Shown piece after piece: positions 39,580 through 41,052 of a stretch of DNA of 64,000 nucleotides (the stretch's first letter is position 1; each line of letters begins with the position of its first letter). Position numbers and translations under genes: made by a program. The DNA lies in the IMG/VR virus record IMGVR_UViG_3300028393_004061, positions 1 to 64,000 of that record. The stretch is one strand, 5' to 3'. The notes under the pieces were generated by a model. It was given only the letters and a program-made list of their open reading frames with translations, ran no database searches and had not been told where the DNA came from. Source of the stretch: a virus. Taxonomy: Duplodnaviria > Caudoviricetes.

Positions 39580-41052
39580 ATGATGAAAAATAAATTTGCT
39601 AATTATATTGCGTATAGAGAACAGAATGAAGACAAGCCAAATAACAATGTATTGTCTAAAATAAAACTTAAAAAGAATGATGGTTCTAATGACTTTTTAC
39701 CATTCTCAGTATCGAAATCATCAAGGCCAAATCTTAGGATTTTGCTTAAGGCTTTTGATATAAGCGATCAAGTTTCTCTTGGCTATACAACTATTGAAAA
39801 AAATAAAGGCGAAGTAGAGCCAACTCTTAAAAAGAAAGTTATTTATCTTACTGGTGGTGCCGTAAGAGATCACTTGAAAAATAAAACTCCAAAAAACTAC
39901 AATCTCGTCACCAATGCTACGGCTAGTGAAATTAAATTAATATTAAAGCACCCAGATAATAGATTTATTGAAATAGCACCACAAAAACCAGAAAAAGCAT
40001 CACTTGAAAAGTACAATCGATTACCAGAAGCATCTGAAAAAAATAAAATGTTTTATGCTTCGAGATGGGATAAAAGCGGAAAAGAAATTGAATTCACAAT
40101 TGTAATCAATGATGAAAAGTTTAATTTGGCAACCATGAGCAAGGCATCTAAAAGTGGAATGGTAGAACCAGAATCGGCAGATAGTACTGATTCTATTGAA
40201 GATGATGCTCACAATAGAGACTTTACAATTAATTCTCTTTACTTGCCTTTGAATAACTCAGATGGAGATAATACAGACTTAATTGATATGTATGGTGGCG
40301 CACATCACCTTAAAAACAATCAGATTGTTAGCGTAAATGATGATTTCGAATCCAGAGTAAACGAAGATCCAAGTACTGCACTTCGATATATTCGAATGAT
40401 ATCAAAATTTGGAGATTCTGATAGACCTTCCAAAAAACATATAAGTATCATCAAGAAAAATGATAAATTATTTGATCTTCCAAAAGATGTTTTGAAAAAA
40501 GAATTTTTATCTAATCTCGAAGATCCAGATATCGATACAAGAAAGTATTTAAAGTTACTTGATGGTCTTGGTATTCTACATCACATTCATCCAGCTTCAA
40601 ATTTAGATGATATGCCACCAAATCTAGTTGGTGATCGTTGGTTAACTCCAGCTTGGTTGGCAAAAGATGAAGATGCAGAAAGCCTTAAAGATATGCTTAT
40701 AGATCATGGTTGGAGCAAACAAGAAGCTTCTGATATTTCACATCTTGTTAAAATGCATCAATGGGCAAAAAATAAATATGATCCTAATATGTTTTATGAT
40801 TTAAAGAATCACAAGCATGGTATGACATCAAATAAAGTCAAAGAATGGATGAAGATGAGCAATTTCAAAGATCCTCAAGTAGCCGCCTTCTTTATGCATG
40901 ATGATTCTGATTTAAAACCATATGTTGATACCAGCATGGGCAAAAAGATTAACCCAGAATATATAAATTCTCTTGGTCGCACTCCACAAGGTGATGATTT
41001 TGAAAAAACAAAAAGACATTTATCAACAAAAAGATTTATGGATAGCTATTGA
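39580..41052 (+). CDS. CCA-adding/poly(A) polymerase-fold protein with degenerate catalytic motifs
   Basis: [18 protein letters not shown] (DxD replaced by NxN), [27 protein letters not shown]. Confidence 0.8.
   Translation: [490 protein letters not shown]

Follow-up and report, generated by a model that had tools for sequence, protein, structure and literature searches.

The DxD, RRD and EDxxR residues are essential in class II nucleotidyltransferases, where DxD binds the metal, the Arg of RRD senses the ribose and the Arg of EDxxR templates the bases C and A. We know of no described family of catalytically dead class II CCA-adding enzymes, and our literature search returned no report of one. 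The protein analysed here is most readily compared with the class II CCA-adding enzymes (human TRNT1, 4X4W and 8CBM; the Planococcus enzyme, 6Q52 and 6IBP; the Bacillus enzyme, 1MIV), with which about 350 of its residues align at Z scores of 19-25, and with E. coli poly(A) polymerase I (PcnB; 3AQK, 3AQL), which is its best sequence match in the PDB and to which it aligns over the local motifs. Of the signatures of class II CCA-adding enzymes it still has GGxVRD, the Asp of RRD with the FT.N that comes after it, the ED of motif D and the D..GG turn. Other residues stand in place of the DxD motif, the strand Glu and two arginines, namely the first of RRD and that of EDxxR. In addition, those enzymes have neither its 14-residue leader nor its insert of about 30 residues after motif A. 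The same catalytic losses are seen when it is compared with E. coli PcnB.

The N-terminus of the protein points to another well-described system. Bacteriophage T4 proteins IPI-III and Alt are capsid-targeted and ejected together with the DNA. The T4 internal proteins enter the prohead core by means of a capsid-targeting sequence (PMC3012670), and the proteases of the T4 family cleave after Glu in short motifs (PMC5694885). The leader of the protein studied here resembles the MKTYQEFIAE with which T4 IPII and IPIII both begin, and it likewise ends in Glu; however, beyond the leader there is no sequence kinship with the T4 internal proteins, and the cut is predicted after residue 14 as opposed to residue 10 in T4.

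The window, i.e. the whole stretch of 64,000 nt that was analysed, is of the myovirus type and encodes a baseplate wedge protein (PHROG 219), a gp2-like DNA end protector and a baseplate spike OB domain. No tRNA genes were found in the 64,000-nt window, and a megablast search of 20 kb of it against phage records gave no match. The gene under study and its relevant sites are as follows.

39580..41052, plus strand: coding sequence of the CCA-adding-enzyme-like pseudoenzyme (ORF list, PF01743, AlphaFold2 model, VIA).
39580..39621, plus strand: N-terminal leader, residues 1-14, capsid-targeting-like, ending in Glu14 (N-termini of the family; T4 IPII/IPIII).
39853..39921, plus strand: motif A, with GGAVRD intact, N106-Y-N108 in place of DxD, and N112 (phmmer, family alignment).
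40123..40125, plus strand: N182 at the position where the hExxTFR strand, here FNLATMSK, has its conserved Glu (family and profile alignments).
40213..40221, plus strand: motif B, NRD in place of RRD (phmmer, family alignment).
40363..40377, plus strand: motif D, EDPST in place of EDxxR (phmmer, family alignment).

According to the ORF list the frame at 39580..41052 on the plus strand is open and uninterrupted and encodes 490 amino acids. The first-pass annotation of this DNA had described the ORF as full length and uninterrupted, which it is; the length of 490 amino acids that it gave needs a small correction. Of the two adjacent ATG codons with which the gene opens, the second, at 39583, is the likelier start, since it lies at a better distance from the Shine-Dalgarno-like GGGG run and the relatives of the protein begin with MKN. 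The probable length is thus 489 amino acids. It matches the PolyA_pol head domain PF01743 with 71.2 bits (cut-off 23; 1.3e-19), its PHROGs match carries the name 'tRNA nucleotidyltransferase', and the phmmer match to E. coli poly(A) polymerase, the best in the PDB, has an E-value of 1.4e-11. At the same time, it misses the NCBIfam equivalog cut-offs for the CCA-adding enzyme (50.6 vs 290 bits) and for PcnB (72.7 vs 305.65 bits).

The overall architecture is complete. The AlphaFold2 model built from 98 homologues had a mean pLDDT of 87.6, and VIA aligned 353 residues of it (model residues 27-485) to human TRNT1 4x4w_B with a Z score of 24.6 and an rmsd of 5.3. The Z scores were 22.0 for the tRNA-bound 8cbm_E, 20.4 for 6q52 and about 20 for 1miv and E. 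coli PAP, and Foldseek matched the model to class II CCA-adding enzymes with an E-value of 3e-10. The matches to 4x4w, 8cbm_E and 6q52 together span model residues from about 25 to 489, and this nearly full-length correspondence implies that the head, neck, body and tail are all kept. Thus, as modelled, the protein retains the four-domain fold of class II CCA-adding enzymes. The canonical fold starts only near residue 24 of the model, and the true N-terminal extension is therefore nothing more than the short leader.

Within this fold the residues that carry the chemistry have been exchanged. In the phmmer alignment with E. coli poly(A) polymerase from the PDB, N-Y-N falls on DxD, NRD stands against RRD, and EDPST against EDPVR, the last of the three aligned segments pairing with EDPVRMLRAVRF. 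GGAVRD is encoded at 39853-39870 and is intact, and the codons AAC-TAC-AAT at 39895-39903 place N106-Y-N108 where DxD is expected. All four of these readings had been made in the first-pass annotation from the letters alone, and the alignment bears them out. Moreover, N182 lies opposite the Glu of IEVTTFR in the CCA-adding enzyme 6ibp in the family profile alignment, and canonical relatives have FEIATFRKD where this protein has FNLATMSK, which means that a fourth signature is also gone. The alignments confirm that the fold of the annotated family is present and that every catalytic or nucleotide-binding signature in it has been replaced.

These replacements are not peculiar to one sequence. 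Our search of the protein database yielded 196 relatives, the best 120 of which span 43-98% identity and are all full length. DxD was found in none of 121 relatives of 43-98% identity; position 106 was Asn in 110 of the 121 sequences, position 212 was Asn in 108 and never Arg, and position 266 was Thr in 98 and again never Arg. Across the degenerate clade described below, positions 106, 108, 112, 175 and 182 vary freely among N, D, G, S, E and V, while the residues flanking them are fixed. The usual state of the clade at these five positions is N, D, D, E and a variable residue; position 112, which is Asn here, is Asp in most of its members. In the lineage leading to our protein, positions 106, 108 and 112 became N, N and D, and finally all five positions became N, N, N, V and N. 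Our protein is thus the extreme case, in which all five acidic positions are non-acidic. A sequence-based search for a conserved acidic pair that could stand in for DxD revealed none in this copy, and E171 is the only new carboxylate left in it.

The pattern of nucleotide substitution was not that of a decaying gene. Compared with its relative at 98% identity, the gene differs by 36 synonymous and 12 non-synonymous changes (omega 0.074). Other pairs from the degenerate clade gave omega values of 0.03-0.09, a range that matches the 0.054-0.063 measured for canonical pairs; saturated pairs (pS above 0.75) were left out of this comparison. Across the clade, no part of the protein is as well conserved as the motif A region (mean frequency of the major residue 0.89), and in the N-x-N subclade, where the overall identity is 75%, not one residue varies from YLTGGAVRD through TNATASEI. 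The same state of the motifs recurred in relatives at 98% and 75% identity, which stem from independent metagenomes; a metagenome scan for the pseudoenzyme itself recovered the same 98% contig and a short fragment only. As judged from these substitutions, the gene is maintained by strong purifying selection. The earlier proposal of a selected pseudoenzyme therefore gains support on the points at which sequence comparison could have contradicted it: the close homologues lack DxD, and selection is no weaker than in the canonical relatives. The N-x-N state is also conserved within its subclade.

The family to which the gene belongs is large and comes from uncultured huge T4-like phages. A profile scan of IMG/VR gave 79 loci at 30-98% identity on contigs of up to 532 kb. 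In the distant members (28-40% identity) every motif is canonical, namely DxD, FE(I/L)ATFRKD, RRD and ED.LR, and the same holds for the only GenBank relative, which is encoded in the 595-kb uncultured phage LR756511; no relative from a cultured phage is known. These canonical members (for example LR756511, loci L036-L046 and L072-L078) have the same length, leader and synteny as the pseudoenzyme, and the same phosphatase gene often lies downstream of them (see below); unlike the pseudoenzyme, they keep DxD, FEIATFRK, RRD and ED.LR, and since all the motifs are kept, they look active. To root a maximum-likelihood tree of the family, we used ordinary, canonical CCA enzymes that occur as paralogues in the same phages. 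Fully canonical members made up the basal branches of this tree, and all four motifs were lost together in one clade of 44 rows with a support of 100 and a long stem. Our protein falls inside this clade, with L002 as its sister, followed by L003, L005 and L004. At least three further, independent partial losses were detected elsewhere in the tree (L073/L080, L066/L076 and L038/L040). Recurrent loss of the catalytic residues while the rest of the protein stays constant suggests that selection maintains a function for which catalysis is dispensable. Taken on the strength of alignments and tree, the degenerate copies are a large, old and strongly selected family in huge T4-like phages. One degenerate subclade (L033-L035, L054, L057, L064 and L067) consists of proteins of about 400 amino acids without the C-terminal tail domain; with an omega of 0.033 for L033 vs L035, these are shorter forms and not broken genes.

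The presence of a second, canonical gene differed between genomes. Three relatives (G003-G005) carry a degenerate copy together with a separate canonical CCA enzyme of 412-441 amino acids, whereas G002, a 100%-complete record, has the degenerate copy and no second CCA gene. In the near-complete G007-G009 the canonical family member is the only CCA-type gene. The separate canonical enzymes and examples of the phosphatase found next to the family gene are listed here.

L081 (in G003), L082 (in G005) and L083 (in G004): separate canonical CCA enzymes, with GGAIRDYL..PKDVDL and EDKLR.
L028:9467-10057, plus strand: example of the HAD_SAK_1 phosphatase, with homologues in about 30 loci.
L095 (LR756511), at about 5244: homologue of the HAD_SAK_1 phosphatase.

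The phosphatase gene lies directly downstream of the family gene in about 30 loci from both the canonical and the degenerate clades, and also in LR756511. Its product of 180-220 amino acids matches PF10307 ('HAD domain family 1 in Swiss Army Knife RNA repair proteins') at 3.7e-15 and, more weakly, the phosphatase domain of PNKP. The DxDxT motif is intact (DFDGT or DFDDT), and the leader is often present in this protein too. A CCA-type gene with an adjacent HAD phosphatase makes the ancestral pair look like a kit for healing and rebuilding RNA 3' ends. With tblastn we found no match to the phosphatase at E<=1 in the window or in the nearest relatives (L002-L005).

The surroundings of the gene are conserved on one side. 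Its neighbours in the window are the following.

39194..39529, plus strand: upstream co-directional gene, 111 amino acids, coiled coil and C-terminal hydrophobic helix; beside the homologue in 29 loci.
38647..39156, minus strand: syntenic neighbour, 169 amino acids, acidic; 79 of 79 loci.
37329..38654, minus strand: syntenic neighbour, 441 amino acids, N-terminus MYNIAIEEWLNE, a leader followed by a Pro/Gly/Gln-rich linker; 78 of 79 loci.
36830..37309, minus strand: syntenic neighbour, 159 amino acids from the ATG at 37309, starting with MLLFNEFINHKE, the same leader; conserved synteny.
34293..34829, minus strand: T4 gp2-like DNA end protector (PHROG 429, 2.1e-07); 75 loci.
23610-34226, minus strand: ORF of 3538 amino acids, presumably a giant virion protein; adjoins the gp2-like gene in 71 loci.

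Homologues of the 169-aa, 441-aa, 159/179-aa and gp2-like genes were found beside the family gene in 75-79 of the 79 loci. The 441-, 169- and 159-aa proteins had no Pfam or PHROG match. Downstream of the family gene no arrangement is conserved across the loci, and in this window a glycan gene island occupies that side. The 111-aa gene ends 50 nt upstream of the pseudoenzyme gene; its product could be a membrane-anchored partner, and its matches to coiled-coil Pfam families are weak.

The N-termini of the family follow the common pattern M(K)..F..[FY]..[LIFY][RK]E, with examples such as MKTFKEYILLKE and MKSFKEFIANR; E14 is invariant in the family and F6 nearly so. When all the ORFs in the loci were considered, the leader motif occurred at 49 of 1572 first-Met positions vs none of 8319 internal Met positions. 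The matching proteins (the CCA-like family, the 159-aa neighbour, the HAD phosphatase and several small proteins) are mutually unrelated, and the family of the 441-aa neighbour begins with ..A[IL]EEWL.E before its Pro/Gly-rich linker. A Peptidase_S77 domain of the T4 gp21 prohead protease type was detected at about 1e-28 in the relatives G002 and G004. A leader on unrelated proteins and, in these two relatives, a protease of the gp21 family recall the T4 internal proteins, and the hint at capsid packaging that had been read from the N-terminus of the pseudoenzyme is strengthened. The predicted packaging of the pseudoenzyme in the capsid is well supported by these comparisons, and the 441-aa and 159-aa neighbours are candidates for further packaged proteins. 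Because the leader is T4-like and its terminal Glu is invariant, we infer that the protein would be loaded into the prohead, trimmed by the gp21-type protease and released with the DNA.

With rather more confidence than doubt we favour the explanation that the protein is a non-catalytic, head-packaged binder of RNA 3' ends, probably those of tRNA, which derives from a dead phage CCA-adding enzyme and is kept under purifying selection. An ancestral phage CCA-adding enzyme would have lost its two metal-binding Asp residues, the strand Glu, the Arg of RRD and the Arg of EDxxR while its architecture stayed. Since all the catalytic residues are lost, the protein is expected neither to bind NTP-Mg nor to add nucleotides. 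The leader would direct it into the prohead core, a gp21-type protease would trim off this leader, and the protein would leave the capsid with the DNA. Once in the cell, it may bind RNA 3' ends, above all the acceptor ends of tRNA, without performing any chemistry on them, and the bound ends might be shielded, sequestered or presented to partner enzymes. The change from Asp to Asn would take away a negative charge that, when metal is absent, would repel the RNA end; we infer that RNA 3' ends are bound through the preserved body and tail and through this de-charged pocket. Several observations count against the RNA-binder reading. The replacement residues are themselves conserved, the pI of the pseudoenzyme is about 7.8, which is not markedly basic, and neither the window nor the nearest relatives contain the HAD partner. 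Moreover, the exact T4 late promoter TATAAATA was not found upstream of the pseudoenzyme gene; in the window as a whole it occurs 22 times, barely above the 14.8 expected by chance.

Other explanations account for part of the same evidence. The missing catalytic residues, and nothing beyond them, would fit a decaying pseudogene or a sequencing artefact; we rejected this possibility, which the open frame, the omega of 0.07 and the recurrence of the same state in independent metagenomes leave with hardly any probability. More has to be said about a neofunctionalised enzyme, in which the pocket of the head domain would hold another ligand or carry out another chemistry, either metal-independent or by way of other residues. 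The conserved replacement residues N106, N212 and T266 would also fit a new ligand or chemistry, and no other region of the protein is as well conserved as the head domain. In addition, D108 and D112 persist in most members of the degenerate clade, in which two acidic residues, E171 and E175, have been acquired on the adjacent strand; together these four could make up a shifted acidic cluster. However, the free interchange at 106, 108, 112, 175 and 182 between fixed flanks is not what such a cluster would suggest, in our protein all five are non-acidic and E171 alone is new, and the Arg residues of RRD and EDxxR are gone as well. We therefore regard a neofunctionalised enzyme as unlikely. Since this copy retains no acidic cluster, it is unlikely to perform a new metal-dependent chemistry, and changed chemistry, which had been among the options of the first-pass annotation, is likewise unlikely here.

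Two alternatives remain. The protein could be a purely structural, internal head protein, in which the RNA-binding scaffold packs or condenses DNA inside a very large capsid without acting on RNA after ejection. The capsid-targeting-like leader and the synteny with the gp2-like DNA end protector and with other leader-bearing proteins would agree with this, and recurrent catalytic loss shows that chemistry is dispensable. Nevertheless, it is the region of the former active site, and not the surfaces only, that is very highly conserved; an intact RNA-repair phosphatase is a frequent partner in the relatives; the basal members are canonical and represent the sole CCA-type gene in the near-complete G007-G009; and the pI is near neutral. 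A purely structural role thus seems improbable to us. The opposite case, a cytoplasmic adaptor that is not packaged at all, would recognise tRNA ends and recruit or regulate a partner such as the HAD phosphatase, a second, active CCA enzyme or another enzyme acting on tRNA ends, and the N-terminal motif would then mean something else. The adjacency of the HAD gene in about 30 loci favours it, as does the separate canonical CCA enzyme of G003-G005, whose own family copies are degenerate. Yet the phosphatase is missing from the window and the nearest relatives, the complete G002 has no second CCA gene, and the leader is common to non-homologous proteins and resembles the T4 tag. We consider a non-packaged adaptor quite improbable.

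If the favoured reading of a packaged, non-catalytic binder of RNA 3' ends is taken further, the leader-tagged proteins might form an injected kit, in which the dead CCA enzyme clamps the 3' CCA ends of tRNA in the first moments of infection, either as a shield or decoy against host immunity directed at tRNA tails or as a controller of the phage enzymes that act on tRNA ends. We put this forward tentatively, as a possibility that we consider rather unlikely. The immune systems concerned would be tail-cleaving nucleases such as Cas12a3 and enzymes that modify CCA ends. That tRNA tails are an immune target, and that Cas12a3 cleaves them, has recently been described (PMC12851939), which provides a context for such a binder and is not evidence for it. 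If the protein does clamp tRNA ends in this manner, the recurrent loss of catalysis would mean that binding, and not repair, is the selected activity.

What is new here is the family-wide, rooted series of states, the joint loss of the motifs in one clade, the leader shared with unrelated neighbours and the link to the HAD partner. Automatic annotation mislabels well over a hundred phage proteins as 'tRNA nucleotidyltransferase'. The graded set of members, some canonical and others fully dead, constitutes a natural experiment on how an RNA-end polymerase may turn into an RNA-end binder. If tRNA ends are indeed bound without any chemistry, phages would have in these proteins a tool of a new type for the conflict over tRNA.
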